Both the position numbers and the translations under genes were made by a program. A stretch of 25,305 bases of DNA from a virus (lineage: Duplodnaviria; Caudoviricetes), in the IMG/VR virus record IMGVR_UViG_3300017747_002323, positions 1-25,305 of that record, one strand, 5' to 3'. Below are positions 1 to 15,673 of the stretch, piece after piece; positions within the stretch are counted from its first letter, which is position 1, and the number at the start of each line of letters is the position of its first letter. Under the pieces are notes generated by a model. It worked only from the letters and a program-made list of their open reading frames with translations. It made no database searches and was not told the DNA's origin.

Positions 1-11
1 ACTTCGGCACC

Positions 12-45
12 TGTCAACCCGCATTGGACGAAATCGGGAAAGATT
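12..45 (-). promoter_or_regulatory. Fourth copy of the early-type promoter (-35 TTGACA at 12-17; -10 outside window)
   Basis: Minus strand GATTTCGTCCAATGCGGGTTGACAGGTGCCGA shares the upstream GTCCAA, TTGACA and spacer GCCGA with the promoters at 8181-8208 and 8695-8722. Confidence 0.55.
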
Positions 46-431: not shown

Positions 432-796
432 AGAGTCCCCGGCCCGTCCATATGCCGCGTACATTCGTTGCCCTCCGTTTGCATTTGGAACGCCACGCGT
501 TCCACTAGGTCAAGCCAATTGCAACGGTCGCGCCATTGCATGGCCGACCACCGTTCCCAATCCGACAGGGCGGCCGTGTGCGACATTCGCACGGCGGCGG
601 CTACGTCGGGCCACGACGGCGACGGGCGGGCGCATTCGCGCAGGGCCGCGATAGTCACCATACGCCAATCGCGTTCGGCCATTTCGCGTAGCGCGCGGGT
701 TTCCCGCGGCGTGTAGCCTTCCGGCCCGTGTATCCGGTTTGGATTCGCGGACAGGTACCGTACCGCGTCGCGGATTTGTCGCGCGGTATAACTCAT
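428..796 (-). CDS. Hypothetical protein (~122 aa)
   Basis: ATG at 796 coupled to upstream TAA (TAATG). Confidence 0.65.
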   Translation of the reverse strand: MSYTARQIRDAVRYLSANPNRIHGPEGYTPRETRALREMAERDWRMVTIAALRECARPSPSWPDVAAAVRMSHTAALSDWERWSAMQWRDRCNWLDLVERVAFQMQTEGNECTRHMDGPGTL

Positions 797-1131
797 TACG
801 GCACGACTTCCCACACGCGGGCGGCGCGCCCGGAACGCGTCGGGCGCGAACCGTTGGCGCGAATCTTCCCGGCGCGCATCATGGCGTTTATCGTGGCCGA
901 CGCCGTTTGGTGCGTCATATCCAAACGCTGTTGGATTTCGTCACAGGTCGCGGGCGCGTCGCGCAACGATGCGAGAATGCGCGCGGCCACGCCGTCGGGT
1001 TTCGACGCGTACGCGGCATCCTGCGTTGCCCACCGTGTCGCCTGTCGCGCGGTCGCGCGTGGCGGATCGTTGACGGCGAACCGAAACAGGCCCGGCCATT
1101 GTTCCGGCGTGCGTGGCGTGTATTCGTTCAT
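796..1131 (-). CDS. Winged-helix DNA-binding protein
   Basis: ILASLRDAPATCDEIQQRLDMTHQTASATINAMMRAGKIRANGSRPTRSGRAARVW resembles small phage wHTH proteins. Confidence 0.75.
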   Translation of the reverse strand: MNEYTPRTPEQWPGLFRFAVNDPPRATARQATRWATQDAAYASKPDGVAARILASLRDAPATCDEIQQRLDMTHQTASATINAMMRAGKIRANGSRPTRSGRAARVWEVVP

Positions 1132-1691
1132 TGGAATTTTCCCGTTTCGTTACCCCACGAATCCCAACCCGCGCGCGTCGTGCGCGCGAACAGTTCGATA
1201 CGTTGCGCGTTCGGGTACAGCGATTCGATGGAATCGTAAATGGCGTCCGGCTTCCGACTGTGTTCGCGTTTCGGGGCTAGTATGACATTTCGTACGGATT
1301 CATCGGAAATCGGTAGTGGTCGTCCGCGCCTAGCACGGCTTCCGGCAATGACAAATTCCGCGGTCGGCTTGACGATGGATGGGCGGATTCCCTGCGCGCC
1401 AATCGGCGTCCCGTCCGATTTAGTCTTGACCCAAACAAACGCGACGCCGCGATAATGGAACCCCCATGTTTGCATGGTTCGAATTGCGACATCCAATAGC
1501 GGCGACGTTGCCCAAACGAACACGACGCCATTTCCGCGGATGATGGATGCCACGGGGATTTCCGCTATTTGTTCCGCGGGAATCGTTGGATAGAATTTCT
1601 CCGCGGCCGTCCATTTGTCTTTCGCGCCGTAGTATTGCCACGGCGGGTCAATTAGTGCGACGTCCCATTGTCCAATCGGGAGAGTTATCAC
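1128..1691 (-). CDS. MT-A70 family amino-methyltransferase (likely DNA m6A)
   Basis: IDPPW catalytic motif; FVWAT, WGFHY, FVWVK, EHSRKPD and IELFAR motifs; GTG start in GTGA overlap. Confidence 0.92.
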   Translation of the reverse strand: MITLPIGQWDVALIDPPWQYYGAKDKWTAAEKFYPTIPAEQIAEIPVASIIRGNGVVFVWATSPLLDVAIRTMQTWGFHYRGVAFVWVKTKSDGTPIGAQGIRPSIVKPTAEFVIAGSRARRGRPLPISDESVRNVILAPKREHSRKPDAIYDSIESLYPNAQRIELFARTTRAGWDSWGNETGKFQ

Positions 1692-1957
1692 GCGTTCACC
1701 ATTTCCCGTAGCCGCCGGATTTCGGCGGCCGCGTCGCGCCAATCATGCGCTAATCGTCGTAGGCACGTTCCGTCGATTGGCACGCATTCGCCGCGCCTGT
1801 CGGCGTATTCGGCCGCGTGTGACGACACGACGCCGTTCCATGCACAGCGCGCGCCGATGTCGGGCGCGGTTCCGTCCCACGTATGCAGCGGGATTCCGAA
1901 CGCGGGTACGCCCGGTTCCGGTTCCACGTGTGCGTCGTCGTCGTCGTGCGTCGGCAT
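1688..1957 (-). CDS. Hypothetical protein
   Basis: Operon position; ends in DAAAEIRRLR like its neighbours. Confidence 0.65.
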   Translation of the reverse strand: MPTHDDDDAHVEPEPGVPAFGIPLHTWDGTAPDIGARCAWNGVVSSHAAEYADRRGECVPIDGTCLRRLAHDWRDAAAEIRRLREMVNA

Positions 1958-1959
1958 GA

Positions 1960-2289
1960 TTAGCCCACGGTATCGGCGGTTTGTGGCGACTTGCGCGGGC
2001 GGCCGCGCGCCTTGCGGCGAATGCCGCCCGTGAACGATAGTTCCCGCAGCACCGCGCCACCGTTTCGGCGTAGGTCGCGTACGTTGACCATTGGCAATTC
2101 ATAGCCGACCAGTTGGCACATACGCGACATGGCCCAATCGGGGATATTCGATCCGGCCAACCAATTCGACACAGTTTGCGGCGACACCGAAAGATTGGTG
2201 GCGACAGCGCGCACGCCATGCGCGCGAATGGCCCCGGCCATTTCGTCGGTGCGTGTCAACGTCCAAAAGACTTCGGCGTGTACGTTCAT
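1960..2289 (-). CDS. Cro/XRE-like HTH protein with C-terminal AT-hook-like RGRPRK
   Basis: GVRAVATNLSVSPQTVSNWLAG HTH; AAGGGG RBS before ATG at 2289. Confidence 0.8.
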   Translation of the reverse strand: MNVHAEVFWTLTRTDEMAGAIRAHGVRAVATNLSVSPQTVSNWLAGSNIPDWAMSRMCQLVGYELPMVNVRDLRRNGGAVLRELSFTGGIRRKARGRPRKSPQTADTVG

Positions 2290-2474
2290 TGGAAAACCCC
2301 TTGCATGAATCCTAGAAACAGTCGCCCGATGGCGACCCAAAACCACCCGCACGCAAACAGGATAGCGGCGGATACTGTGAATTTCACGAACACCAACGCT
2401 AGCGCGTAGGCGACGCGCACGACGGCGGAACCGTCGCCCCTTACCGCGTCGTCGTCGTCGTAGTCAATCGGCAT
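2286..2474 (-). CDS. Small membrane protein
   Basis: GGAGG RBS before MPIDY; long hydrophobic stretch. Confidence 0.6.
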   Translation of the reverse strand: MPIDYDDDDAVRGDGSAVVRVAYALALVFVKFTVSAAILFACGWFWVAIGRLFLGFMQGVFQ

Positions 2475-2655
2475 TGGTTGAATCCTCCGCATCGTTTACC
2501 GCGGATTTCACGTTGTCTAGCCGACCCCGTAGCCGTTCGATTTCCTGCGCGCATTCGCGCAATAGTCGGCGCATTTCCCCATACCCAACGCCACCGAAAC
2601 CGTAGTCGGCGTCGGCGTGCGCGCGTGCGCGTTTGGCGATTTCATTCTGTGCCAT
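2464..2655 (-). CDS. Hypothetical protein
   Basis: Overlapping operon gene with ECAQEIERLR motif. Confidence 0.6.
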   Translation of the reverse strand: MAQNEIAKRARAHADADYGFGGVGYGEMRRLLRECAQEIERLRGRLDNVKSAVNDAEDSTNAD

Positions 2656-2899
2656 GCGTGGTCGGTTCCTGTGTGATTTGCCGCGCCAACAGGTCGCGGA
2701 TTTGGTGTTCGCGTGCGTTCAACGCGTCGGCAATTTCGTACGCGCTACGTTTGTCCGACAGAATCCACCCGAACGGATGCGCGTCGCATTCGGGCGCGCG
2801 TTCCACCGTCCACGGCGGGCGGTCGGAAACCGTCCACCACGGCACCGACCAACCGCGCGACATTGCACGTTCGGCGTAGTCAATCCCCATTGGTTCCAT
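2642..2899 (-). CDS. Hypothetical protein
   Basis: Fills the operon with short overlaps; IADALN motif. Confidence 0.6.
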   Translation of the reverse strand: MEPMGIDYAERAMSRGWSVPWWTVSDRPPWTVERAPECDAHPFGWILSDKRSAYEIADALNAREHQIRDLLARQITQEPTTHGTE

Positions 2900-3233
2900 C
2901 CTTCCGGTACAAATCCCATTCGCGGGATTCCGCTACTTCCCGCGGCGTTGCATATTCCGATACCGCGACGTTTAGCCAATAGTCCGGGTCGGATTTGGAA
3001 CTACGCGCTAGCAATACGCACACTTCGCGGCGCGCCAAATCGCGTTCGCGCGTCGTAAATTCCAATGCGGTTTCCAATCGCACGGCTTCCGCGCAATACT
3101 GCGTGGTTGATTGATCGCGCGCGCAACCGCCCGCGCGCAATCGTTCGATTTCGTCGGCCGCATCGGTAAATAGTTTTCGCACGTGGTAGCCGCCTTCCGA
3201 TTCGCGCAGACGCGCCACGATGTCATTTTCCAT
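2880..3233 (-). CDS. Hypothetical phage protein (DIVARLR...DAADEIERLR type)
   Basis: GAAGG RBS; motif common in small phage early proteins. Confidence 0.7.
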   Translation of the reverse strand: MENDIVARLRESEGGYHVRKLFTDAADEIERLRAGGCARDQSTTQYCAEAVRLETALEFTTRERDLARREVCVLLARSSKSDPDYWLNVAVSEYATPREVAESREWDLYRKDGTNGD

Positions 3234-3426
3234 TGGTGTTCCGCCTTCCGTTGCGCGCGATTTCCTCCGCGACTTCGCCGCGCCAAATCTCAACTTCGCG
3301 CGGGAATTCGAACGCGACGCGCGCGCGGCCGTCGCCGCGGATCGTGACTTGCACGCGGCCGATTTCCACGCCGTCGCGCGATAGTGTGAATTGCTGATCC
3401 GTCGGAACGGTGATTACCAACGCCAC
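3223..3426 (-). CDS. csrA: CsrA/RsmA-like RNA-binding protein
   Basis: 67 aa; ALVIT...RVQVTIRGDGRARVAFEFPREVEIWRGEV follows the CsrA pattern MLILT...QVRIGVNAPKEVSVHREEI. Confidence 0.72.
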   Translation of the reverse strand: MALVITVPTDQQFTLSRDGVEIGRVQVTIRGDGRARVAFEFPREVEIWRGEVAEEIARNGRRNTNGK

Positions 3427-3593
3427 GCGGCACCCCCTGTTGAGAGTGCCGCACCGCCCACGGTGAGGCTAAACCGTGGACGGCGCGGCGTGGGGAATGG
3501 CCGCATAGCGGCCCCGACGTTACCGCGCGTCCTGCGCGGGATTCCCGCGACGTCGGCGGGGGTTGCGTGCATTGTATCCGGTGTTGTGTTCAT
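3414..3593 (-). CDS. Small hypothetical protein (59 aa, not in ORF track)
   Basis: ATG at 3593 after GAAGGGG; MNTTPDTMHATPADVAG...AAWRW fills the gap. Confidence 0.4.
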   Translation of the reverse strand: MNTTPDTMHATPADVAGIPRRTRGNVGAAMRPFPTPRRPRFSLTVGGAALSTGGAAWRW

Positions 3594-3596
3594 TGG

Positions 3597-4130
3597 TCAC
3601 CCCTTCGGCGTTCCGGCCGCCGTGGCCGTTGCGGCGATTGCCGCGTGTCCAGTATAGCACGATTCCAACGCCGCGCAAACGATGAACACGTGCGCCCGTG
3701 TCCAATCTTCGTAGCGTGCGGGTAGCGGTTCGCGCGGTAGCCATTTCGAATCGCGCATCCGTCGCACGGCATCGGCCACGCGGTCGCGCGGCGTCGTTCG
3801 TAGCCGTTCGACGCACCGCGCGCGGTCGGCTTCCAAGTCGGCCGCCAACCTGTCGCGGTCGGCTTGCGGGTTCGTGGCGGGCGCGGCCTGTCGCGTCGCG
3901 CCCGTGTTCGCAATGCGTCGGTAGACGGCCAACAGTTCCGACAGGCGGAACACGGTGCTAGTGCATTCGGCCCGGTAGTCGTCAATCGCGGCCGCTAACC
4001 ATCGTTGGGTGAGGCCCGACAGGCGGCCGACGGCTAGCCGTCGTTCCTCTTCGGTTGGTTGGTACCGCGGCCATAGGCCGTTGATTCGTTGGCGGTTCGT
4101 TTCCCACGTTGCGTCGGCGTGTTCGGTCAT
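3597..4130 (-). CDS. Replication-associated protein (possible helicase loader)
   Basis: Directly downstream of the initiator (ATGA overlap); function inferred from position. Confidence 0.55.
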   Translation of the reverse strand: MTEHADATWETNRQRINGLWPRYQPTEEERRLAVGRLSGLTQRWLAAAIDDYRAECTSTVFRLSELLAVYRRIANTGATRQAAPATNPQADRDRLAADLEADRARCVERLRTTPRDRVADAVRRMRDSKWLPREPLPARYEDWTRAHVFIVCAALESCYTGHAAIAATATAAGTPKG

Positions 4131-4606
4131 ATGCCACCCTTCCGCGCGTGCGCGCGCGACACACGCGTAGCGTGTGTCTCTTCTCTTCTCTTCTCTTCTC
4201 TAGGTAACGCGGTTGTAACGGTCGAACCGTTACGGCTTCGGTGATTGGCGACCCGGCGCGCCGTTTCCGCGCGTTGTTTGGCGGTTGCGCCGTTGTGTTC
4301 CTCAAATCGCGGAATACGCGGGCTACCGTCGTCGGCGGTTTCCAACCACCCGACCGAACGCAGGGCGTCGGCCAATTGCAGACGCGCGACGCCGTGCGGC
4401 ATGGGTTCGGCCACGACGCCCGCTAGCGCGTTGATTTCGTCCCACGTGCGGTACCGCAACACGCCATCGGTCGAGTGTTCATCCGCCCACGACCACACCA
4501 CGCACAATGCACCGACCACGGTAGCGGGCGCGACGCCCGCGACGCGCGCGACGTAGGCCACGCGTGGGTCGTGCCAAAGGTTCGTACGTACCTTTATCCA
4601 CGCCAC
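4127..4606 (-). CDS. Phage replication initiator (replisome organiser) N-terminal type
   Basis: AWIKVRTNLWHDPRV...VGAL..VWSWAD...VGWL...IPRFEEHNG...REEKRREE signature; start GTG 4606 or ATG 4615. Confidence 0.8.
   Translation of the reverse strand: MAWIKVRTNLWHDPRVAYVARVAGVAPATVVGALCVVWSWADEHSTDGVLRYRTWDEINALAGVVAEPMPHGVARLQLADALRSVGWLETADDGSPRIPRFEEHNGATAKQRAETARRVANHRSRNGSTVTTALPREEKRREETHATRVSRAHARKGGI
4177..4233. repeat. Probable replication origin: (TTCTC)n tract plus GTAACG repeats
   Basis: TCTC(TTCTC)4 at 4177-4200; GTAACG at 4204 and 4215, CGTTAC at 4228, all inside the initiator gene. Confidence 0.55.
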
Positions 4607-4986
4607 GGTCGGCATTCCTTCCCGCACGACAACCGACGTACGCGCGCAATGGCGACCGAACGCCGCACCGCATCGAACCGCGCGCCCGGTTCGACTAGTT
4701 CCCAAATCGCTAGCAATGCGCCCACGGTTTCCGGTTCAACCCGTAGCCGTTTGGCTATCACCGCGCGACGTGGCGACAGGTGGCCCGGCATCATGTCGAA
4801 CACGATGCCCGCTACCGCGATTTCACGCGGTAGCCGGGTATCCGGCCACACGATTTCCGCGGCCGCGTAGGATTCCGCAAACCCGAACGGTCGCGCCCGG
4901 CCGCGCGTGCGGCCCGCGACGGCACGCGCCGCCGCGGGTTCCACCGCGCCCGCCGTTGCCACCGGGTTAGAACGGCAACGATTCAT
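4594..4986 (-). CDS. Putative HTH protein
   Basis: GGAGGGG RBS; PRRAVIAKRLRVEPETV HTH-like segment. Confidence 0.55.
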   Translation of the reverse strand: MNRCRSNPVATAGAVEPAAARAVAGRTRGRARPFGFAESYAAAEIVWPDTRLPREIAVAGIVFDMMPGHLSPRRAVIAKRLRVEPETVGALLAIWELVEPGARFDAVRRSVAIARVRRLSCGKECRPWRG

Positions 4987-5905
4987 CGGTACCCCCCTCC
5001 GTCGGCACCGTTCGGAAATCCTGTAGCAATGGCATCCGGCCCGGCCCGCGGTCGGAAACGACCGGAACCAATGTTGCACCGATTGCAGCGCGCAACACGT
5101 CCAACAACCCGTCGCCAACGATATAGGACGTAGCCACGCCGTCGGCCACGAATTCGGCTACGTGAATCGGCGTACCCCGCACGTCGCGGGCGGTGATTGT
5201 GTGCAGGATTGCCGCGGAACGGGCCGTAGGTTCGCTAGGCGGCGTTCCGTTGGTTTGGGGCGGCGTCGGGGCATCCTGTCGCGGCGTGGCCTGTACGGCC
5301 GTCCTAGTGGCCGTATCGCCCTGCGCGGCGATTCGGTCGTTTAGCGCGCGTGTCGATTCCGACCGCGCCCGGCCCGGCCGTTCCGGTGCCGCCGGGACGG
5401 GCGACGCGGCCGCGGCGCGGTCGCGCATTCCGTGCCGGGTTTCCGCGCGGTCGTCGTTCCGGCCGTCCATATGGCCGGATTCGTCTTCCCGCGGCAAGCA
5501 CAGCAAATCCCGCAACCAATACGAAAGGCTAGTGGTCAAAGCCGACGCCACCGCCTTATCGACGGGCCGCCCCTTTTCCACCACAATCGGCCACACGGTT
5601 TCGGATTCGGCGGCTTCCCCGGTGAACCCGTGGACGACCGACATACGGGACACGACGTACAGGCCGTCGCCCTCAATTCGCCACGACACACGGCGCGCGG
5701 CAATGCCGCCCGTTTGCAGGGCCGCGCGGCACGCACCAATCATTCCCTCCGCAGACGTGTACGCGTATTTGTGGAACGTATTCCGCGCATCCTTCGCCAC
5801 GCCGTCGATAGCACCCTGCGCGACCAACAGGCCGTCGGCTAGCGAACGGGTACCGCTACGCGGGCAAACGCCGGGCGTTTCGTTCGTTTCGTTTCTCTTC
5901 GTCAT
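4967..5905 (-). CDS. erf: ERF-family single-strand annealing protein
   Basis: VAKDARNTFHKYAY...KAVASALTTSLSYWLRDLLCL ERF pattern; acidic DESLPF tail; ATG in ATGA overlap. Confidence 0.8.
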   Translation of the reverse strand: MTKRNETNETPGVCPRSGTRSLADGLLVAQGAIDGVAKDARNTFHKYAYTSAEGMIGACRAALQTGGIAARRVSWRIEGDGLYVVSRMSVVHGFTGEAAESETVWPIVVEKGRPVDKAVASALTTSLSYWLRDLLCLPREDESGHMDGRNDDRAETRHGMRDRAAAASPVPAAPERPGRARSESTRALNDRIAAQGDTATRTAVQATPRQDAPTPPQTNGTPPSEPTARSAAILHTITARDVRGTPIHVAEFVADGVATSYIVGDGLLDVLRAAIGATLVPVVSDRGPGRMPLLQDFRTVPTEGGTDESLPF

Positions 5906-6723
5906 TCGCCACCCCCGTTCGCGGCCGCGGCCGCCCACGCGGGCATCGTCAAGTCCTCGACCCATTGCGAGTACCCCGGCCATTCGCCCGACGATTCGCA
6001 CGCGGCGAACGTTTCCACCGCGCGTTGGATTTGGGGAAGCACCCTATCCATATCTTCATTCGACAAAGAATACGCCGCGACGCCGTACGGCGCGGATTTC
6101 TCCACGGCGATTAGCACCGCGTGCGAAGTGTGTACGCCATTGGCGGCCAAGACTTCCCGATAGAACGCCATTTGCACCCAATACCCGAAATCGACGCACG
6201 AACGCGCAAACGCGCGCGGCGCGGCCGACAGCGTGGTTTTGATGTCCACCACGGTTCCGTCGGGGCCGATTGCGTCTATTCGTGCTTTGCACGGCACGCC
6301 CCACAATTCCGCCGTCCACACGCGTTCGCGTACGCCGCAATTCGACAGGCACACGCGCGCGCCGCGGTGGCCGTCGATAGCCGCCACCATTGCGTCGATT
6401 TGGTGTTGTTCGGCCGCATCCACGACGGTTCGGCCATTCGCCGTCGCCGCGAACAATTCGGCTTCGTCTTTCCCCGCCTTCGTGCGGCGGTCGAATTTCG
6501 GGGACACGACGAATTCCGCCGGGTACAGGTCGGGCCGCAACGCGCGGCAATGCAACGCGCGACCGATCCGCAACGCGTCGCTATCCGCGTCGTCGTTCAT
6601 CCGTGCGCGAAGGTGCGCGGGCGTGGACGTTACCAACGTCTTTACCCACGACGCGCGTAGCGCGGGAATCGCCGCGTATTCGGCTTCGGACATTTCGCGG
6701 CCCATATTGCGTTGCGTGTTCAT
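5902..6723 (-). CDS. RecE/exonuclease VIII-like PD-(D/E)XK nuclease (DUF3799 type)
   Basis: ALRIGRALH, DRRTKAGK, CKARID, VDIKTT, YWVQMAFY, IAVEK, WPGY motifs. Confidence 0.9.
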   Translation of the reverse strand: MNTQRNMGREMSEAEYAAIPALRASWVKTLVTSTPAHLRARMNDDADSDALRIGRALHCRALRPDLYPAEFVVSPKFDRRTKAGKDEAELFAATANGRTVVDAAEQHQIDAMVAAIDGHRGARVCLSNCGVRERVWTAELWGVPCKARIDAIGPDGTVVDIKTTLSAAPRAFARSCVDFGYWVQMAFYREVLAANGVHTSHAVLIAVEKSAPYGVAAYSLSNEDMDRVLPQIQRAVETFAACESSGEWPGYSQWVEDLTMPAWAAAAANGGGE

Positions 6724-6833
6724 CGGTTGCCACCCTTCCGGCGCGTGCGCGCCTTATTCAAATACTCGCGTTCGACGGCGCATCCAAACAGGAACGCGCA
6801 CGCGACTACCGTAACGAATGCCACTACGTACAT
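6720..6833 (-). CDS. Small single-pass membrane protein (37 aa)
   Basis: AGGGG RBS before MYVVAFVTVVACAFLFG. Confidence 0.5.
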   Translation of the reverse strand: MYVVAFVTVVACAFLFGCAVEREYLNKARTRRKGGNR

Positions 6834-6919
6834 TGGAAACCCCTGTGCGCCTGTCGGGCGGCGCGCCCCTTTCGGCCGTATGCCGGGTAGCCCGCCGCAC
6901 GCGGCGGCGGGTTGGCCTG

Positions 6920-7210
6920 TCACACGGCAGCGTCGGCCGTGTTTGCGGCCATCATGTCGTATAGTTTTTGCGCTGCAATGAACCGATTTTTGAGAATCGG
7001 CTTACCGTCGATCATTGCTTGCATTTGCCGCGTTGCGAAGCGCAGACGGGCGGCCGTCCAATGCGCGCCACACAACGCGGCGCGGCGGTCATATTCGCGC
7101 ATTTGCATTTTCACGCACCACAGGCACACGGCAAAATCCGCGGTACGCGGGCGCGGTTCGGCTTCGGCACGGGCAATAACGGCGGCGGCGGCGATTTGGC
7201 TACGGTTCAT
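6920..7210 (-). CDS. Hypothetical early protein (cassette 1, 96 aa)
   Basis: AGGGG RBS, downstream of promoter/leader copy 1. Confidence 0.7.
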   Translation of the reverse strand: MNRSQIAAAAVIARAEAEPRPRTADFAVCLWCVKMQMREYDRRAALCGAHWTAARLRFATRQMQAMIDGKPILKNRFIAAQKLYDMMAANTADAAV

Positions 7211-7228
7211 TTGGCTAACCCCTGTCGT

Positions 7229-7267
7229 CGGCGTTCGGGCCGCCGTAGCCCTGTCGCGTTGCGCGAC
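7229..7267 (-). ncRNA. Structured 5' leader, copy 1 (hairpin + pseudoknot)
   Basis: GUCGCG CAA CGCGAC A GGGC UA CGGCG GCCC GAA CGCCG. Confidence 0.6.
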
Positions 7268-7273
7268 GTTCAC

Positions 7274-7301
7274 ACGGTAACGCATCGGCGTTACGTGTCA
7301 A
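7274..7301 (-). promoter_or_regulatory. Sigma70-type promoter P1 with palindromic spacer
   Basis: TTGACA-16 nt-TACCGT; contains GTAACGC-CGAT-GCGTTAC inverted repeat. Confidence 0.75.
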
Positions 7302-8116
7302 GTACCTTTAGACGAATATGCGAAAATTCGTTTTGATAGGTCGCGTAGAAATCGCGCCTGTGCCGGGGACAGGTCGCGGAACCCCGCGCGGTTCACAATA
7401 TCGCGCGCCACGTTGAAATCGTCGTTTGGCAAATCACCACGCAGGATTTCCGCCATGCCGTCGTCGGTGGTCACGTCTACCAATTCAGGCACCCCGGCCG
7501 CGGTGCAGCGTTCCACGCGTGCGGCGCGCGCCGCGTCGCGTTCGGTGGCGACGTTCGTATACACGGCGGATTCCCTGCACAATACGGTGCGCTGTGCGTC
7601 GGACAGGCCCGCGGCCGCCTTGCGTGCAATATCCATTACGACGAACGACAGGCCCGGACGGAACCAAACCCGGCCGGATTCCTCCGTAATCATCAACGCG
7701 GGGAAGTTAGCCGATAGGTAAGAAACGGCGGCGGCCGTTTCGGCTTCGTGCTTCGCCGTACGGGCCGCGTCGCGGCGACGGTCGGCCGCGATTGACGGCG
7801 CAACCTGTCCGGCCGCAATAGCCAATAGGTCGCGCCACATAGTCGAAACGGCCGCGATACGTGATTCGAACACGCGGCTATTGTTTCCGCCACAACGGAA
7901 ACAATCGCCCCACGGGCGAACAACGCCCGCGCCACCGCAACGCGTGCAGGGCGAACGCCATACCGCCTTTGTACCTTCCGATTCGAAATGAGTCGCCCCG
8001 ACGGCGTGTGCGAATGCGCGTGGATTCGCGCACGACTTCGCGCCGTTCACGTGTCCACATTGCGACAGTACGGCGGCGGCTTCGGCTTGCGTGTAATTGG
8101 CGACGGGTGAACACAT
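7298..8116 (-). CDS. Early protein with DnaJ-like Zn finger (cassette 2)
   Basis: CTRCGGAG...CFRCGG; GAAGGA RBS. Confidence 0.75.
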   Translation of the reverse strand: MCSPVANYTQAEAAAVLSQCGHVNGAKSCANPRAFAHAVGATHFESEGTKAVWRSPCTRCGGAGVVRPWGDCFRCGGNNSRVFESRIAAVSTMWRDLLAIAAGQVAPSIAADRRRDAARTAKHEAETAAAVSYLSANFPALMITEESGRVWFRPGLSFVVMDIARKAAAGLSDAQRTVLCRESAVYTNVATERDAARAARVERCTAAGVPELVDVTTDDGMAEILRGDLPNDDFNVARDIVNRAGFRDLSPAQARFLRDLSKRIFAYSSKGT

Positions 8117-8135
8117 GGCGCGATTCCTTCGTGTA

Positions 8136-8174
8136 CGGCGTCGGCCGCCGCGGCCTGTCGCCCGTATTGGCGAC
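8136..8174 (-). ncRNA. Structured 5' leader, copy 2
   Basis: GUCGCC AAUACG GGCGAC A GGCC G CGGC GGCC GAC GCCG. Confidence 0.6.
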
Positions 8175-8180
8175 GTTCAC

Positions 8181-8208
8181 ACGGTAACGTATCGGCGTTA
8201 CGTGTCAA
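8181..8208 (-). promoter_or_regulatory. Sigma70-type promoter P2 (near-identical to P1)
   Basis: TTGACA-16 nt-TACCGT; GTAACG-N6-CGTTAC. Confidence 0.75.
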
Positions 8209-8465
8209 GTACCTTTGGACAAATCGGCCAAAATTTCTTTCGTGCTATGCGACAGGATCGCGCCGCCGTCGGTTTGGTATTGGCCGTTCCGACGACGGCG
8301 CGCAATCAACGGCCGCCCGCGAATCGGTGCGCCGTGGTCGAAATCAAACACGACGCCATCGTGTCGAACGGCGATAACCACGCACGGTTGGAATAGGCGC
8401 GCACCGCACCCAATGCAGATATGCAACATCACGGCGTCGCCGGGGTTAAACGGGCATGGGGTCAT
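8205..8465 (-). CDS. Hypothetical early protein (86 aa)
   Basis: ATG at 8465 in ATGA overlap; MTPCPFNPGDAV start. Confidence 0.6.
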   Translation of the reverse strand: MTPCPFNPGDAVMLHICIGCGARLFQPCVVIAVRHDGVVFDFDHGAPIRGRPLIARRRRNGQYQTDGGAILSHSTKEILADLSKGT

Positions 8466-8632
8466 GCCGCACCGCCAATCGTTTCCGCAACCACGCGACG
8501 CCATTCGGAAATCGACAGGCCGACAACACGGAAACGGCGGGCCAATGCTTGCGCGTCGCGTTCGGCGTTTCCTGTCAACCACGGGCGGATCATTTCGCGT
8601 ACGGCTTCGGTTGTTACGGTTTCGTTGGTCAT
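8462..8632 (-). CDS. Small hypothetical protein (56 aa, not in ORF track; cassette 3)
   Basis: AAGGGG RBS; MTNETVTTEAVREMIRPWLTGNAERDAQALARRFRVVGLSISEWRRVVAETIGGAA. Confidence 0.7.
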   Translation of the reverse strand: MTNETVTTEAVREMIRPWLTGNAERDAQALARRFRVVGLSISEWRRVVAETIGGAA

Positions 8633-8650
8633 TTGGCTACCCCTTGCATT

Positions 8651-8688
8651 CGGCGTCGGCCGCCGCGGCCTGTCGCCGTAGTGGCGAC
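8651..8688 (-). ncRNA. Structured 5' leader, copy 3
   Basis: GUCGCC ACUAC GGCGAC A GGCC G CGGC GGCC GAC GCCG. Confidence 0.6.
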
Positions 8689-8694
8689 GTGTGG

Positions 8695-8722
8695 AGAATA
8701 GCGATACATCGGCCTATGTCAA
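8695..8722 (-). promoter_or_regulatory. Sigma70-type promoter P3
   Basis: TTGACA-16 nt-TATTCT; GCCGAT in spacer. Confidence 0.75.
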
Positions 8723-8783
8723 GTGCCATTGGACAGAATCCGACGAAATGGGCAAAAAAGTTTCGGCCGCTACCATGTCCGAT

Positions 8784-9221
8784 ATGGCACGTGGACGCCG
8801 ACCAACCGACGCTACCGCGGCCGCGGTCGATTCCGCGCGCCGTCGTGTCGCGTCGGCGTGGGCGTTGTGGTTGCTACTACCACAGGGCAAACGGCCGCCG
8901 ACGGCCGTAGCCGCCGTCCTAGTGGCTACAGCGCGCGGCCGTGCCGACCTATACCGCGTCGTGCGGTCGATTGGCGCGCACGCTCCATTGGAACGCCCGG
9001 CCATACTAGACGCCACCACCCAACGAATCCGACCACGAACGCCGGAGGATTTCGCGGAAATGATCGACACGCTACGCGTAGCGTACGACATAGCGGAAAC
9101 CGCGCACGCCCGCGCGGCGTGCGGCAACGCGCGCGGCGTCGTCATGGCCCGCTATTTCCGCGCGTTAGGAAATCAGGGTATCCAAAATGGTTTCCGCGCC
9201 CGCGCTGTTCGCGGGCAATAG
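8784..9221 (+). CDS. Only plausible plus-strand gene; hypothetical, divergent from P3
   Basis: Uses TTG/CTA/GAA codons like the other genes; TACCAT 7 nt before ATG 8784; start uncertain. Confidence 0.55.
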   Translation: MARGRRPTDATAAAVDSARRRVASAWALWLLLPQGKRPPTAVAAVLVATARGRADLYRVVRSIGAHAPLERPAILDATTQRIRPRTPEDFAEMIDTLRVAYDIAETAHARAACGNARGVVMARYFRALGNQGIQNGFRARAVRGQ

Positions 9222-10541
9222 CAAACCCTTTTCGTACATGGCGTAGAAACGGTCGAATTCGGTATTGAATTCACCTTCCGCGCCGTTCGTGGATTTCAAC
9301 GTTATAGAATCGTTGGCTACCCAATCGGTCGAACCGGGGAGGATTACGATACCTTGCGACCCCGGCGCAAATTGGCGTACTTCGGCCAATACCAGTTCGT
9401 CTAGGAACATCGTCGCGCCCGCGTTTATCGCGGTCGTTTGTTCCAACGAAACGTATACGGTTGACGGCAACGCGACAGGCGCGCGGAAAAACGCATATTG
9501 CCAACCGTACGTCGTTCCAATCGTGTACGGGATATCCACCTGTGCGCCCGTAACAATGGTGCCGCCGGAATTCTGCAACGACACGCGCACGTTTCCCGCA
9601 CTAGGCGCGGCCGACATTCGCGCGGCCACGGCCAACACGTACAGGCGGTCGGAAACGATGCCGTGTGGCGTGCCGGATTCGGTCGCCATTTGCTGTCGAA
9701 CCTTCGCCAACGTCGCGCCGTCACCGATGAACCGGAACGATTTCGCCCCGCGAAATACCGTGGTCGATTCCCCGAAGTGCGTACCCGCCGTACCTGTGGA
9801 TACGGTGAAATAGTCGGGGATGTTGGCGGTCGTGTAGTTTTCGAAGGCGCTATTCCGCAACAGGTTTTCGTAACGCGCGCCCGTGTCGAGTGCCGGATTT
9901 AGGCACGACATTACGAAATCCGCGCCCGACCCCGCGGGGAATCGGTAATCCAAATTCCCGAACGCGACTTGCCCGCGCACGCGGAACCGTTCGCTACCCG
10001 ATGGAATCTCGCGTGCCGTCGCATCCTGCACGCATCGGATTTCCAATCGTTCGGTACGGATGTTGGGAAATTGCGTTACCCCCGACTGCAACGACGGCGG
10101 CGGAATCTCCGTGTACAACAGCGTTCCGTTTCCGGTGTTCGACGCGCCCGTGGCCGACGCGGATTTGGAAATCGCCGTAGCGTCCACCGATTCCGAATCC
10201 GCGGCCATTTCGCGGATCAAATACATAAGCGCATCGTGTACCGTTTTCGACGGCATCGGGCTACGCGTGTTTAACGCGGCGTCGTTGTAGCACGTTTCGA
10301 TTAGTGTCTTTTCGGCCGCTGCCTGTACGTCGGCAACGATTGCGCCCGCGGCCTGTACGCGCAATTGCATTTGGCCGACGATTTCGCCAACCATATACGA
10401 ATCGGCCGACGAATATTCGGCTTGGATTCCTGCAATGCGCGAAACCAAATCCAATTGATGCGCGCGCACGGCTTCGGCTAGGCCAAACAACTTTCCTAGC
10501 CGCGTGAACAATCCATTTGTGCCGTCGTAGGTTAGGGCCAT
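9165..10541 (-). CDS. Putative tail-associated protein with C-terminal CBM-like beta-sandwich
   Basis: ENLLRNSAFE...RGAKSF...FLDELVL resembles the CBM4/9 pattern; last gene of the tail operon. Confidence 0.65.
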   Translation of the reverse strand: MALTYDGTNGLFTRLGKLFGLAEAVRAHQLDLVSRIAGIQAEYSSADSYMVGEIVGQMQLRVQAAGAIVADVQAAAEKTLIETCYNDAALNTRSPMPSKTVHDALMYLIREMAADSESVDATAISKSASATGASNTGNGTLLYTEIPPPSLQSGVTQFPNIRTERLEIRCVQDATAREIPSGSERFRVRGQVAFGNLDYRFPAGSGADFVMSCLNPALDTGARYENLLRNSAFENYTTANIPDYFTVSTGTAGTHFGESTTVFRGAKSFRFIGDGATLAKVRQQMATESGTPHGIVSDRLYVLAVAARMSAAPSAGNVRVSLQNSGGTIVTGAQVDIPYTIGTTYGWQYAFFRAPVALPSTVYVSLEQTTAINAGATMFLDELVLAEVRQFAPGSQGIVILPGSTDWVANDSITLKSTNGAEGEFNTEFDRFYAMYEKGLLLPANSAGAETILDTLIS

Positions 10542-10546
10542 GCGCG

Positions 10547-10819
10547 TTATTCCTGTGTCGGTTTATCGGTGAATGGTACGGCCGCGTTCAACGCGGCGCG
10601 ACGTTCGGCGCAACCACATTTCCCGCCGGGTGCTACGCGTTCAACGACGGCCGCCGCGCCTGTCCATTTGGCGACGGTATGCACCACGTCCCCCAAACCA
10701 CGCAACGTTCCCATGTACATTCGGCACGACGAACAACGTTCGTTCGTGGCGTCACCGCCGACGCCGGGGTGTCGGCATTGGCCCGCATCGTTGAATCGGC
10801 AACCGCTAGGTAAACGCAA
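10547..10819 (-). CDS. Small Cys-rich protein (GLGD...CGC..RR..LN motif)
   Basis: TTG start after GGGGAG; RGLGDVVHTVAKWTG...KCGCAERRAALN. Confidence 0.7.
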   Translation of the reverse strand: MRLPSGCRFNDAGQCRHPGVGGDATNERCSSCRMYMGTLRGLGDVVHTVAKWTGAAAVVERVAPGGKCGCAERRAALNAAVPFTDKPTQE

Positions 10820-11549
10820 TGGAAATGCTCCCCGTGCGCGTGATTCGATATCCCAACGAATCCGTGTAGTCTTCGAATCCGCTACCAATCGGGATTGGCC
10901 CGGCGTATCCGGTGCTATCGGCACCGAATCCGATGGATATGCAATCAACGCAAGTTCCGGGGTCGCAATCCGGCGGGAATTCCCCGACTATATTTATCGT
11001 TACGGAACGCGACAACGATTGCGCCCCGCAATCGGGATTGCAGCACACGCCGACGGAAGAAGATTGATATAGGCCCGTACCCTGAAAAGAAACATTCAAA
11101 CCCCAACGGTTGTCCCCTGCGGTGAATCCACCCAAACAGGTTAGACCGATTGCGTATTGCCCGCCAAGTAATGGCGTGGCGCACGTTCCGAAATTGAACG
11201 ATTGCATATAGCATTCGCGCCAAACGCCGCACGCGCTACCGTCATATTCGTTTATTTTGCTAGTTACGGTTTGTGTCGCGGTAGCCGTTCCACCCAATCG
11301 CGCGGTGCCATATTCACCCGGCGGGGCGGTTGAACCCAATAATGTCCCCGTAACGGTTCCCCCGAACGTCCACGTATCCGTCCCCGTCACAAAACCCGAA
11401 CAACCGTCTACGAATTCCGTCAACGATGAACCGCTAAAGGTTACGGTAACCGTGCGCGGCAACGACGGAAAACACGCCGTCGTCCATTGTTGACAGTTGG
11501 CAATTCCACCACCGCGCGCACAACAGCACAACGCCGCTAGCCGCGACAT
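10806..11549 (-). CDS. Cys/Thr/Gly-rich putative tail-tip or receptor-binding protein
   Basis: N-terminal CCC, many Cys, beta-rich, visibly more AT-rich; in tail operon. Confidence 0.6.
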   Translation of the reverse strand: MSRLAALCCCARGGGIANCQQWTTACFPSLPRTVTVTFSGSSLTEFVDGCSGFVTGTDTWTFGGTVTGTLLGSTAPPGEYGTARLGGTATATQTVTSKINEYDGSACGVWRECYMQSFNFGTCATPLLGGQYAIGLTCLGGFTAGDNRWGLNVSFQGTGLYQSSSVGVCCNPDCGAQSLSRSVTINIVGEFPPDCDPGTCVDCISIGFGADSTGYAGPIPIGSGFEDYTDSLGYRITRTGSISIAFT

Positions 11550-11917
11550 TACGCGTTCCCTTCGCGCCCGTAGACATTCACAGACACGACGCCCGTAACG
11601 CCCGCGCGCCCGCGCAACGACTCGCCCGGAAGTAGCGGCCGTTCCGTTTCATCAATCACCGTCGCGCCGTTCGCCAACCGCGCGTCGTAATACTGCGCGT
11701 TCGCTACCGACGTTGCCGCGCCCGGTCGCGTGTGGTGAATACGAAACGTCGTAGCCGACGTGTGCGTGTTGCATACGACGATTGCCGTAACGAACGCGAC
11801 GCGACTAGACGGAACCGTGTATACCGATTCGTCGTTGGTGGTAAACGTGAATTGCGCCAATAGGCGCGGATTCCGTTCGGAGCGTACGGGAATCGGGGTT
11901 GTGGTTAGGGTGGACAT
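11549..11917 (-). CDS. Small beta-sandwich structural protein
   Basis: VYTVP...IVVCNT...L.PGESL...VSVNVYG pattern. Confidence 0.65.
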   Translation of the reverse strand: MSTLTTTPIPVRSERNPRLLAQFTFTTNDESVYTVPSSRVAFVTAIVVCNTHTSATTFRIHHTRPGAATSVANAQYYDARLANGATVIDETERPLLPGESLRGRAGVTGVVSVNVYGREGNA

Positions 11918-12690
11918 TGGACGTTCAACGCGTTAGGAATGCTAAAGTAGGCGGATTGGCTAGAGAACGACAACGCGACCACGGTATTTACCGCAATCGG
12001 TGCTAGCGAAATGATCGCACCGCCCGGCCCGCTACCCGGCACGGTTCCGGTTTCGCATCCGTTGATTGCAAACGGCCCCGAACCATCGGCACCACCGGAC
12101 GCGCCGCCTGTCTTCAAACGCCACACGATGTCCGCGGGTTGGCCCGCGGGTACCACGATGTCGGCGTATACCTCTTTCCAAGTGTATTTCCAACGCGTCG
12201 GCGGATTCGTGGCAACGCCCAACGTAGCCGCCGCCGTAATGATTGCGGGTATGGTCGATTGCGCCAACGCCGACAGAATCAACCACGAAACCTTACCGTC
12301 GGCACCGATTAGCCGAAGCATGGAAACGATGCTGTTCACCCCTAGCGTTACGTTCGCGCCCGTGGTCGCACCCCACGCCGGAATGGCGTAGGCGGGTTGG
12401 TACCTGTCGCCGTCTGTGCTAGCGAACGACGTACGGCCGTCCGGCCTGTCTTCCCATTCCACGTAACGGTTGTAGTCGGCTTTCGACTTCGGCCACACTT
12501 CCGCCCATCTGTAGTCTTGATACGACCCGGCCGCGTGCGTGATACGCGCGAAACACAGGTCGGACGACGTGGGAACGAATCCGGCACCCGCGGTCAACAG
12601 CGGGCGCAACCTGTCCACCGTGTCGCATATCTCGTTTAGATGTTCGAACGTCAACCGTCCGATTTGGCCGCTGTTGAACCGTGGTAGCAT
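11905..12690 (-). CDS. Putative tail protein with internal duplication
   Basis: ARIT...YRWAEV...AYAI and AIIT...YTWKEV...AIN repeated halves; downstream of TMP. Confidence 0.6.
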   Translation of the reverse strand: MLPRFNSGQIGRLTFEHLNEICDTVDRLRPLLTAGAGFVPTSSDLCFARITHAAGSYQDYRWAEVWPKSKADYNRYVEWEDRPDGRTSFASTDGDRYQPAYAIPAWGATTGANVTLGVNSIVSMLRLIGADGKVSWLILSALAQSTIPAIITAAATLGVATNPPTRWKYTWKEVYADIVVPAGQPADIVWRLKTGGASGGADGSGPFAINGCETGTVPGSGPGGAIISLAPIAVNTVVALSFSSQSAYFSIPNALNVQCPP

Positions 12691-12693
12691 GGT

Positions 12694-13566
12694 TTACCAA
12701 TTCGTGGAAATGGCCGTGAAATCGGCCGTATTCGGGAACGGTTGCCGCCAAAAAACCTTGCGTGCGCGTTTGCCGCCGTTGATTTCCGACGTGGGAATCC
12801 GGCCGCTACCGTCGCGTTCCGGCGTCTGTATCAAATGGTATTCGGAATCTTCGATGAACCGATGCGTAACGGTGAACAGCGAAACGCCCGCGCGTCGGAT
12901 TTGGCCGCCCGTATAGACGACGGTACCGCGCGCGAATCCTTCCCACGATGCGTTATTGCGACGACCACGCGCCGTACGCATATTCGCAATAATGGTCGGC
13001 AATCCCGAAACGTTCTGTATCGTTTCGTTGATTACCAATTCCGAAGTGTACTTTAGACGCGACAACGGCACGCCCTCTAGGTCGATTTGCGTGCCACCCG
13101 TAATTTGCGTCGTGGCCGCGTTGGCCGGGTCGCCATTGGTCGGATACGTCGGGTTGGAAATGTACGTGTCCGCGAACGCGGCGGCTATGTCCAACGTCCA
13201 TTCCACGTAGCCGACTTCGCCGGGCTGTGCGGAACTACTGGTTACCTGTGCGTTGGCGTAGTTCCAAACGACCGTCCAAATATCCGTCAACGGTTCGCGC
13301 GTGATTGAATAGGATTTAGCCCAAACGCCCGTTTCGTCGGGGAATAAATCGCCCTTCGCGGGCAACGCATCCGGCCCCGCGCTAGTCAATCCACCGACGC
13401 TACCACCGACGGCGATACCGAACCATTGGCGAACCCTGTACGGAGAAACCAACGACGACGTAGCGGTGTCGTCGTAAACCTTGAACGTGCGCGACGCGGA
13501 AACCTTGCCCGCGTCGTATGACCACGTTCGGCTTGCGGATTGTTCGATGCAACGGAAATTCGGCAT
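12694..13566 (-). CDS. Putative distal tail/hub protein
   Basis: First gene after TMP; beta-rich; RNNASWEGF..GTV motif. Confidence 0.6.
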   Translation of the reverse strand: MPNFRCIEQSASRTWSYDAGKVSASRTFKVYDDTATSSLVSPYRVRQWFGIAVGGSVGGLTSAGPDALPAKGDLFPDETGVWAKSYSITREPLTDIWTVVWNYANAQVTSSSAQPGEVGYVEWTLDIAAAFADTYISNPTYPTNGDPANAATTQITGGTQIDLEGVPLSRLKYTSELVINETIQNVSGLPTIIANMRTARGRRNNASWEGFARGTVVYTGGQIRRAGVSLFTVTHRFIEDSEYHLIQTPERDGSGRIPTSEINGGKRARKVFWRQPFPNTADFTAISTNW

Positions 13567-14751
13567 TTATTGAAATCCGATTGTTTGAATGGTCGTGGCT
13601 ACCTTTTCGGTAGCGGTCGCGGTGCGTTCCTGCACGCTACGTTGCGCCTCTTTGGGGTACGCGTCGAACGTAAACGAACCTAGCGCGGTGTTGGCGGTTC
13701 CCGTGCGATTGGCCCCGGCCGATTCGGCGTCGGCGCGTTGCGCCTGTACGGCGGCTAGTTCCTCTTCCAACGCGTAACGCTCTTCGATGGCCTTCCGTTC
13801 GTCGGCGGTCAACGCGTCGCGCAACGCTTTTTCCTTCGCCACGGTGCGTTCCACGCGTTCGCGTTCGCGCGCGATTTCGCGGGCCGCGTCTGTTTGTCCG
13901 TCGGCGGCCGCCCGCTCTTCGCGGATTCGTAGCCGCAACAAACGCACGTCGGTTTCGGCCTGTTTGGTACGCTCTTCGCGCGCCTTGCGTTCCTTCTCCG
14001 CGGCTTCGGCTTCGCGTTTGGCCTTGTCGTCGGCGGCTTGTTTTTCCTTCGCCGCGGCTTCCGAAATAGCCTTTAGTTTCCCTTCTAATTCAATCTGTGC
14101 GGCGCGTTGTTTTTCCCTGTTGAGATTTAGCAACGCGTTTAGTTCTAGGTCGGAAATCCCTTCCGCCATTCGGAACGCGAGTTCCGTATCCTGTTCATCC
14201 TTTACGCGTTGGGCTTCGGCGCGGGCCGCGGCTTCGGCGTCGCCACGATTTCGCATGGCGTTTATTTCGTTCGTAACTTCCAACCGTTCGCGTTCACGCA
14301 TTAGGGCCGTGGTTGCGCTATCGGCCGCGCGGCTTTCCTTTTCGCGTTCCCCGGCTACGCGGCGCAACCCTTCGCGCGCGGCCGATTGTTTGGCTATCAA
14401 ATCCTCCGCGGCCTTATCCGCCGCCCCGAAAGTCGCGTCGTAAATCGCGCTACCCAAATCGACAAACGCGCCGACGAACGGAATCGTTTTCAAACCGTCC
14501 AATATGGCGTCGGGCATCGACTTATCCGAACGTAGAACGCTTGCCGCGGCTTTCGCCAATCCGGCCGCCATCATTGGCCCGGCGATTGTGCCGACGACGC
14601 CGCGGGCCTGTTCGGAGAATTTCCCGCCGAAGTCGTAGCCAAGTTTTCCGCCCTGCGTTTGGACGGTTTGACGTGCGGCCGCCAACCCCTTATCCAAACC
14701 GTCAAGTTTGGCGGTAACGTCTATGTAAACTTCACCGCCTTTTTCGGCCAT
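13567..14751 (-). CDS. Short tape measure protein (~394 aa)
   Basis: GEVYIDVTAKLDGLDKGL N-terminus; Ala/Glu/Arg-rich helical body; follows the frameshifted chaperone. Confidence 0.75.
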   Translation of the reverse strand: MAEKGGEVYIDVTAKLDGLDKGLAAARQTVQTQGGKLGYDFGGKFSEQARGVVGTIAGPMMAAGLAKAAASVLRSDKSMPDAILDGLKTIPFVGAFVDLGSAIYDATFGAADKAAEDLIAKQSAAREGLRRVAGEREKESRAADSATTALMRERERLEVTNEINAMRNRGDAEAAARAEAQRVKDEQDTELAFRMAEGISDLELNALLNLNREKQRAAQIELEGKLKAISEAAAKEKQAADDKAKREAEAAEKERKAREERTKQAETDVRLLRLRIREERAAADGQTDAAREIARERERVERTVAKEKALRDALTADERKAIEERYALEEELAAVQAQRADAESAGANRTGTANTALGSFTFDAYPKEAQRSVQERTATATEKVATTIQTIGFQ

Positions 14752-14768
14752 TGTCGGCAACCTTCCGG

Positions 14769-14984
14769 CTATAGGGAATCAATGTACGCCCGTGTATCTA
14801 TCGGGCCGGATACCCGGCGCAATTCGCCCCGCGCCGCGGCTTCTAAATACCCGGTGAATTCCGAAACAGGCAATGCCAACGGATCGGCTACACCGACCAC
14901 GGTAGCCACTAGGAACGATTCCGCTAGCCAATCGCGGGGCCGTTCGCGTCCGGGTTGACGCGCGAACGGCGTACCCATTTTCCC
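14769..14984 (-). CDS. Tail assembly chaperone -1 frameshift extension (gpT-like)
   Basis: Lies in the -1 frame entered at GGGAAAA (14978-14984). Confidence 0.75.
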   Translation of the reverse strand, partial: GKMGTPFARQPGRERPRDWLAESFLVATVVGVADPLALPVSEFTGYLEAAARGELRRVSGPIDTRAYIDSL

Positions 14985-15346
14985 ACGTCGGCCGACCATT
15001 CAAACCCGACGGTTTGCAACGCAAGTTCCGTTAGGTCGTCGGGCGCGATCCCTTCCAACATGGATTCGGCACGGTCGGCCCCGACCGATTCGGTAAGGAT
15101 TCGGCACGCGCCGTCGAACGTAAAGCACGACCGAACCAACGTCGTAGACAATCGGGCGTCTTCGCGGGCGGTGCGCGTTCGACGTAACGTTTCGTCGGTG
15201 TCCAATCCCAACGCGCGACAGTCGGCCGCCGTTTCCGCGGCCATACGTTCCGCCATGACGGATTGCAACGTGCAAACCTGTCGAACGGTCAACGGCGGGA
15301 ACCGTCGTTCCTCCCCGCCAACGATAGCCACCGCGTCCCCGATCAT
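14924..15346 (-). CDS. Tail assembly chaperone (gpG-like)
   Basis: Between tail tube and TMP; ATGA-coupled start MIGDAV; slippery heptamer near its end. Confidence 0.75.
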   Translation of the reverse strand: MIGDAVAIVGGEERRFPPLTVRQVCTLQSVMAERMAAETAADCRALGLDTDETLRRTRTAREDARLSTTLVRSCFTFDGACRILTESVGADRAESMLEGIAPDDLTELALQTVGFEWSADVGKWVRRSRVNPDANGPAIG

Positions 15347-15621: not shown

Positions 15622-15633
15622 GCCCCAATGATA

Positions 15634-15673
15634 CCGCCGCCGCGGAACGCGCGAACGCGAACCACGGCGGCGG
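15634..15673 (-). terminator. Long GC hairpin after tail tube gene (terminator or stabiliser)
   Basis: CCGCCGCCGUGG UU CGCG UUCG CGCG UU CCGCGGCGGCGG; weak U tract. Confidence 0.45.

Follow-up and report, generated by a model that had tools for sequence, protein, structure and literature searches.

A repeated leader hairpin and minimal H-type pseudoknot at early promoters of an uncultured phage family, a possible translation-initiation element

Several early promoters of an uncultured phage are followed by the same small structured leader, which raises the question of what such an RNA does at the start of a message. The leaders lie in a 25,305-nt DNA fragment, IMG/VR record IMGVR_UViG_3300017747_002323 (the window, by which we mean this whole stretch), a tailed-phage fragment of 61% G+C with every recognised gene on the minus strand. 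An earlier note, made from the sequence alone, had described three copies of a hairpin followed by an H-type pseudoknot (the knot) and suggested an RNA-only antiterminator, a nuclease shield or a protein-binding site. Here we show that relatives preserve the pairing of the knot and its place just before the Shine-Dalgarno (SD) sequence and start codon. This placement is the feature that best constrains function, and it had been missed. We tentatively favor a role in translation initiation, while rating it a little short of an even call.

The three copies are where the earlier note had put them, on the minus strand, with predicted +1 positions at 8688, 8174 and 7267 (copies c3, c2 and c1; Table 1). 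Each +1 falls exactly 6 nt past a TAnnnT box, which in all three copies lies 16 nt after TTGACA; transcription start sites are throughout predictions from promoter sequence. The 6-bp hairpins, with loops ACUAC (8688), AAUACG (8174) and CAA (7267), also held up, as did the single A and the knot behind them. The interleaved second pairing proposed for the knot is upheld, but its register needed correction. In the 8174 and 8688 copies, stem 1 has only three pairs (GGC/GCC) around a 2-nt loop and stem 2 has five (CGGCG/CGCCG), whereas the 7267 copy has a 4-bp first stem and the loop GAA. Because the first-stem registers differ in this way (3 bp versus 4 bp), the supposed covariation of GGGC/GCCC with GGCC/GGCC is an added pair in the 7267 copy and not a compensatory change. 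The 4-bp GGCC/GGCC register was itself ruled out by variants unable to form the fourth pair. Genuine compensatory changes are supplied by relatives and not by these three copies. In c1, c2 and c3 the AUG stands 18-19 nt past the knot with an SD-like site between. Two more copies had been overlooked, one at 3644-3606 (c4) and a variant at 6869-6847. A pattern made from the 3' half of the leader matched three times in the window and never in 100 shuffles, a circular test since the pattern was derived from the copies themselves.

In metagenomes the leader recurs with its pairing intact. Scanning IMG/VR with the 3'-half pattern returned 24 loci; nine of them (on 6 contigs) carried a promoter and hairpin beyond what the pattern required, and the other 15 matched by chance. 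Searching for promoter and hairpin while leaving the 3' part open found 57 distinct sites, 26 of them with the knot, and revealed its true register. Two blind tests left the pairing itself open. With the hairpin and stem 2 free (42 of 64 parts covered), 25 of 114 distinct sites formed all five Watson-Crick pairs of stem 2, two formed four, and the other 87 no more than three; each of the 25 complete sites also had a +1 hairpin. With both stems free (52 of 64 parts), 27 of 113 distinct metagenome sites had 3/3 plus 5/5 pairs and one had 2/3 plus 5/5. Among these 27, one is identical to c3 of the window, two come from a near-identical strain and many are close relatives, so the rows are not independent events. 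Loop 3, free to take 1-4 nt, was GA or GAA in all 50 promoter-linked copies.

The consensus leader is a +1 hairpin, a purine, a 20-nt H-type pseudoknot (3 bp, 2-nt loop, 5 bp, no linker, loop GA), an SD and an AUG, with hairpin and knot together taking up 37-41 nt. A set of 75 distinct leaders, chosen because they had the pairing, an SD and an AUG, comprises 32 different cores, with 8 types of stem 1 and 11 of stem 2; four-pair first stems go with GAA in 4 of 4 cases. Stem 2 is at most 5 bp long. When 27 hand-picked cores are aligned without gaps, two-sided changes appear at all eight pairs. All 216 of the 216 cells of this alignment are paired, a figure that is 100% by construction because the set was selected for pairing, and only the G and A of loop 3 are invariant. 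The purine before stem 1 was considered as a further invariant and rejected: it is present in 74 of the 75 leaders, but two copies in a distant relative have C or U. G-U pairs occur on the sense strand, and the +1 hairpin likewise covaries among relatives. Homologs thus keep the pairing rather than the sequence, the point on which the earlier note had let its structure stand or fall. Both in the blind scans and in the 27 cores, two interleaved stems occupy separate bases with compensatory change in each. ViennaRNA, which handles nested folds only, gave a mean of 0.56 for the middle pair of stem 2 and 0.13 for stem 1. Sterically, a 2-base loop spanning a 3-pair stem is close to the smallest that an H-type knot allows, and the bases GA would suit minor-groove contacts. 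The 20-nt sequence is predicted to fold as a minimal H-type pseudoknot whose pairs are kept by compensating mutations.

The knot is used genome-wide. Across 11 records (204,537 nt), a descriptor without stem sequence found 61 cores: 47 with promoter, SD and start, 11 with SD and start only (among them a probable in-gene chance match at 13880 in the window), one with a promoter at a contig end and two lacking both. The 72 cores from ten order-2 Markov replicates included two with a start and none with a promoter, compared with 58 of 61 real cores that have an SD-like site and start. Viewed from the promoters, the knot comes after 49 of the 51 TTGAC-type consensus promoters that these records contain; 46 of these knots are perfect and three have one non-Watson-Crick pair (one of them G-U). 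Copy number reaches 11 per genome in G002. This record and G416 have terminal repeats, at 31,944 and 32,336 nt; the phages of this uncultured family are ~32 kb in size. G416 is a distant member that came up in a promoter-free scan; its capsid is 57.6% identical to that of the window, and its four copies have different hairpins. At early starts directly adjoining the preceding gene, no core was seen.

Beyond this family the motif was not clearly found. In GTDB, none of 49 sites had the knot under the one strict promoter pattern used. Promoter-free scanning for the AGGC type gave 6 perfect sites of 29, namely four known records, G416 and one G417 site that is possibly chance, and the AACC type gave none of 74; other stem sequences fall outside both scans. 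A special status for the GUCGC hairpin was also considered and dropped, as it occurs at 31 non-family sites compared with 16 for a control GCUGC hairpin, only about a twofold enrichment. The frequency of the control indicates that +1 hairpins are common. An unrelated, lower-GC phage group (L026, L028-L030, L048, L052, L054, L063, L068, L070 and L075) shares the +1 GUCGC hairpin, with TTAAC-rich sequence and then AAGGAG behind it. Among unrelated phages, the slot after the hairpin is 64% A+U in the 19 of 31 leaders with SD and AUG, and TTAAC occurs in 12 of the 31; this A/U-rich slot resembles the T7 gene 10 enhancer.

Where the knot sits relative to the gene is equally regular. It lies 2-9 nt from the SD and, in the 75 leaders, 12-20 nt from the AUG. 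Promoterless copies keep the same position before the SD, which indicates that the knot tracks the start site and not only +1. The promoterless copy in the window (6869-6847) is a variant; its orthologs are canonical in five relatives (G001, G003, G004, G006 and G007). Directly 5' of it is stem B, an irregular stem of ~20 bp whose internal loop is fixed (CCAA or CGAA facing CUA or CUG). Stem B occurs in seven records, down to 45% exonuclease identity, and shows two-sided change at 7 of 27 predicted pairs (6 sequences). It is possibly an RNase III-type processing site or a protein site, and would be a second undescribed RNA element.

We suggest that the repeat may be a translation-initiation element with a protective 5' hairpin. 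The transcript would begin at the hairpin, which likely slows decay. The knot would form in vivo, with the G and A in the minor groove of the short stem, and would help to load the host's 30S subunit, with protein S1 or the platform as the probable contact, at the adjacent SD. In this way, ribosomes would start efficiently and de novo on each newly acquired single-gene cassette early in infection, at a time of competition between phage messages and host mRNA. In favor of this role are the tie between knot and start site, kept in promoterless copies, the fixed size of the knot, and the A/U-rich sequence that fills its slot in unrelated phages. Leader pseudoknots with comparable roles are reported: that of tisB is needed for S1/30S binding (PMC7708055), and that of timP enhances translation even with an open SD (PMC11228461). 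Pairing, geometry, spacing, covariation and distribution are established by sequence comparison. A bolder version, in which the knot is an RNA-only priority tag on every early message that docks on the host ribosome and outcompetes host mRNA without a phage protein and represents a widespread, undescribed class of translation element, we consider doubtful.

Several observations weigh against an initiation role. The knot keeps a narrower range of distances to the -10 box (22-25 nt) than to the AUG (12-20 nt). No core is present at the capsid, portal or other late starts of the window, and late genes need the most translation. Locking the knot leaves predicted SD accessibility unchanged (0.60 versus 0.60 in 68 leaders), so simple SD insulation was rejected. 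The SD of tisB and timP is reported to be sequestered and ~100 nt away (PMC7708055, PMC11228461), whereas here it is adjacent and open (predicted mean unpaired 0.60). S1 is described as preferring less stable pseudoknots and A/U-rich entry sites (PMC7038950), unlike a knot that is almost all G-C. Lastly, a possible processing stem precedes each promoterless copy, so that every copy may be close to a 5' end, a location that fits a barrier to decay equally well.

Such a barrier is the alternative we take most seriously, although we judge it rather unlikely. The +1 hairpin would block 5'-end-dependent attack, and the knot would stop an RNase J-type exonuclease or scanning RNase E just short of the ribosome-binding site. 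Downstream of stem B, where RNase III-type cutting would leave a monophosphorylated end, the knot would shield that end. Consistent with this, every copy is within ~19 nt of a predicted +1 or behind stem B, with the knot next in 7 of 7 stem-B records, and in G002 a promoter and hairpin replace stem B at the exonuclease operon. H-type pseudoknots are reported to impede RNase E scanning (PMC9943677), and viral exonuclease-resistant RNAs (xrRNAs) are reported to block 5' exonucleases. Protection is described as rising with the number of coaxial pairs, and eight is the smallest size tested in PMC9943677, yet stem 2 stays at 5 bp or less. That the knot is held at 8-9 bp suggests a recognized shape and not a bulk obstacle. 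Early mRNAs generally need a short life, no copy was found at tRNA or late transcripts, and cleavage of stem B is itself conjectural. The knot could also be an operator on all early leaders, where one phage RNA-binding protein, for example a CsrA-like one, would bind beside the SD and jointly switch off early translation. This reading appears unlikely. It gains from a fixed shape beside the SD at 49 of 51 consensus promoters that is absent from late genes, and from a candidate partner, a CsrA-like gene carried by the window and by 6 of the 11 family records that were searched (the remaining ones being fragments). This gene stands second in a knot-led operon in the window, G001, G002, G003 and G007. 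Four of 13 homologs of its product are named CsrA by a source, with an Atlas lead of 0.86, but the Pfam match (PF02599, E 2.1e-5, 24.8 bits) is under the cut-off of 27. CsrA needs a GGA motif, yet just 38 of the 75 leaders have one between knot and AUG, and folding by itself could account for the two invariant bases. The precedent is T4 gp32, which binds a pseudoknot on its own leader (PMC3014915). Roles in translation, as a decay barrier and as a protein operator are not mutually exclusive.

Two further readings fare worse. The earlier note had likened the leader to the RNA-only antiterminator put of HK022, and an element acting on host RNA polymerase would fit two helical domains joined by one purine directly behind early promoters, the tight spacing to the promoter, and late genes that, in G001 and G002, follow cassette promoters without another consensus promoter. 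As that note had remarked for N, no N-like or Q-like match was seen among the ORFs (open reading frames) scanned (35 in PHROGs, 20 in Pfam). The likeness nonetheless does not carry over: the leader is half the size (37-41 versus ~65-73 nt), recurs at every single-gene cassette, and has just the two loop bases GA invariant, whereas put is reported to require the specific bases G35, A9 and A64 (PMC9378689). Moreover, a G-C hairpin and U tract stand within 90 nt upstream of 24 of the 54 knot-bearing promoters (12 records), compared with 40 of 3000 random windows, although this holds for none of the window's three. Terminators that close cassettes would be pointless if every cassette began with an antiterminator, and the early region of the window has no excess of them (14 versus 15.1 expected). 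We therefore regard antitermination as very improbable. Least probable of all, to the point of being barely credible, is a DNA-level signal (an operator, a hairpin promoter or a recombination handle) whose interleaved inverted repeats mimic an RNA knot. Repeated promoter modules are described as recombination sites in the PeSL cassettes of T4-type phages (PMC2839356), and CCGA recurs in 26 of 50 promoter spacers. Pairing is kept, however, while sequence changes through 11 stem-2 and 8 stem-1 types, G-U pairs stand on the sense strand, hairpin loop lengths vary, loop 3 lengthens with stem 1, and the element lies downstream of a host-type sigma-70 promoter.

Table 1. Leader copies, candidate regulatory sites and neighboring genes in the window
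Feature	Position	Strand	Details
Promoter c3	8695..8722	-	TTGACA-16-TATTCT; from sequence
c3 +1 hairpin	8672..8688	-	6 bp, loop ACUAC; linker A 8671; from sequence
c3 pseudoknot	8651..8670	-	core 3/2/5/0/GA; SD AAGGGG; AUG 8632, 18 nt after knot
c3-led ORF, 56 aa	8462-8632	-	
Promoter c2	8181..8208	-	TTGACA-16-TACCGT; palindrome in spacer; from sequence
c2 +1 hairpin	8157..8174	-	6 bp, loop AAUACG; linker A 8156; from sequence
c2 pseudoknot core	8136..8155	-	SD AAGGAA; AUG 8116, 19 nt after knot
c2-led ORF, 272 aa	7298-8116	-	
Promoter c1	7274..7301	-	TTGACA-16-TACCGT; from sequence
c1 +1 hairpin	7253..7267	-	6 bp, loop CAA; linker A 7252; from sequence
c1 pseudoknot	7229..7251	-	4-bp first stem, loop GAA; SD AGGGG; AUG 7210, 18 nt after knot
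c1-led ORF, 96 aa	6920-7210	-	
Stem B	6875..6928	-	long irregular stem-loop directly 5' of promoterless copy
Variant promoterless pseudoknot	6847..6869	-	loop GACA; SD AGGGG; AUG 6833
Hydrophobic ORF, 37 aa	6720-6833	-	between stem B and exonuclease gene; position kept in relatives; no Pfam match
Exonuclease VIII gene	5902-6723	-	downstream of 37-aa ORF
Copy c4	3606..3656	-	within 3' end of ORF 3597-4130; extended -10 promoter; hairpin differs from other copies
c4 promoter box	3656-3651	-	TG-n-TATACT
c4 hairpin	3644-3631	-	
c4 pseudoknot	3628-3606	-	4-bp/GAA type; SD AAGGGG; AUG 3593
CsrA-like gene, 67 aa	3223..3426	-	second in c4-led operon; candidate RNA-binding partner
Family-type promoter	1..17	-	GTCCAA-N6-TTGACA, cut by contig end; L255 and L289 have full leader here, after tRNA
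GTCCAA-N6 sites	8723-8734, 8209-8220, 7302-7313, 18-29	-	candidate operators
Exonuclease VIII, ERF-like annealing protein, replication initiator, methyltransferase, tRNA-Leu	53-8632	-	
Portal, protease, HK97 capsid, connector genes	9165-25292	-	

The promoters and genes around the leaders show further regularities. In 38 of the 50 distinct promoters, GTCCAA precedes TTGACA by six bases and forms an imperfect inverted repeat over the -35 box as a candidate operator, and the CCGA of the spacers is likewise a candidate operator. Palindromic promoter spacers (7280-7295 and 8187-8202, minus strand) are common to c1, c2 and the orthologous promoter in G001, G003, G006 and G007. A Cro-like helix-turn-helix gene is weakly matched at 1960-2289, and the divergent CsrA-like gene is coupled to an odd upstream ORF of 58-59 aa (3414-3593). 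Cassette content varies between relatives.

Searches for a host gave no clear lead. Capsid and methyltransferase homologs bear no informative names, and no close cultured phage was matched. Against 401 Planctomycetota genomes, the tRNA had matches in 35, generic and mostly 71-79% over full length, and the adaptor protein in one, at 28%. The tRNA-Leu(CAA) itself (53-126, minus strand) is 74 nt with a short variable arm, which is unusual among leucine tRNAs; host-type matches are 80-86 nt. Relatives have a Leu(TAG) or Leu(CAA) tRNA at the same place. Just upstream of the gene, a very G-C-rich palindromic stretch (130-190, minus strand) is kept in L255 and L289. The head gene block contains a methyltransferase-like gene and two paralogous genes of ~145 aa (phrog_5707) at 18579-19772 and 19844-20783 (minus strand).

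If the initiation role is correct, the knot would be a structured, G-C-rich translation enhancer beside the SD; as a decay barrier it would be a phage-encoded block to bacterial 5' decay, and as an operator it would define a pseudoknot regulon for a phage CsrA-like protein. In any case, this RNA motif is very small and its covariation unusually clean (32 distinct cores, all pairs compensated), and it serves as a regulon across the genome and not at one gene. With 21 nt and known natural compensatory variants, it is also a possible portable expression part for high-GC hosts.

How does the leader compare with known RNAs? No Rfam 15 family reaches its gathering threshold in the window and 8 family loci, where only the tRNA passes. 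The best sub-threshold scores on a copy are M23 (RF03006), at 26.2 against 41.2 bits, and c4-a1b1 (RF03163), at 13.9 against 46.7 bits. The c4-a1b1 consensus shares a -10-like box, 6 nt and a GUCGC...GCGAC hairpin, and M23 has two GC-rich stems before an SD, although its match here includes four non-standard pairs; neither model contains the knot. Hairpin loops are variable here and so offer no fixed antisense target. A full-text literature search returned no description of the motif. The searchable files of a viral candidate-RNA catalogue (PMC10690425) held no match; its alignment archives and PDFs and the PMC5737381 supplement were outside this search and may bear on novelty.

Leader pseudoknots and PeSL-like cassettes are already known; what is new is this small motif after +1 in such cassettes. 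PeSL cassettes of T4-type phages repeat a terminator-like stem-loop, an A/T-rich upstream region, a strong sigma-70 promoter, an SD and a small variable gene (PMC2839356, PMC4122927). A repeated strong sigma-70 promoter and SD before small variable genes are found here too, with the terminator-like stem-loop at 24 of 54 promoters in relatives and at none of the window's three. Their stem-loops are described as lying upstream of or within the promoter and acting as terminators, whereas here the hairpin and knot follow +1 in ~32-kb HK97-capsid phages; the word pseudoknot is absent from PMC2839356. HK022 put is also structured nascent RNA close behind early promoters, with two helical domains and a single purine between, but is reported to form a V shape that contains a triplex and touches the beta-prime zinc-binding domain through base-specific contacts. 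It has two sites per genome and no reported tie to a start codon (PMC8632103, PMC9378689), in contrast to the start-linked knot. The gene 32 operator of T4, T2 and RB69 is also a phage leader H-type pseudoknot, with coaxial stems, upstream of the ribosome-binding site. It is described at one gene, ~67 nt upstream, followed by an A+U-rich tract and bound by that gene's own product (PMC3014915); the knot lies 12-20 nt from the AUG of many unrelated genes with no A+U-rich tract. The leaders of tisB and timP likewise have an H-type pseudoknot near the 5' end of a bacterial 5' untranslated region, with a proposed positive role in initiation through S1/30S. These are reported as single toxin genes with larger knots (tisB stems of 9 and 5) and antisense control (PMC7708055, PMC11228461), whereas the knot described here takes 20 nt and is repeated up to 11 times in a genome.

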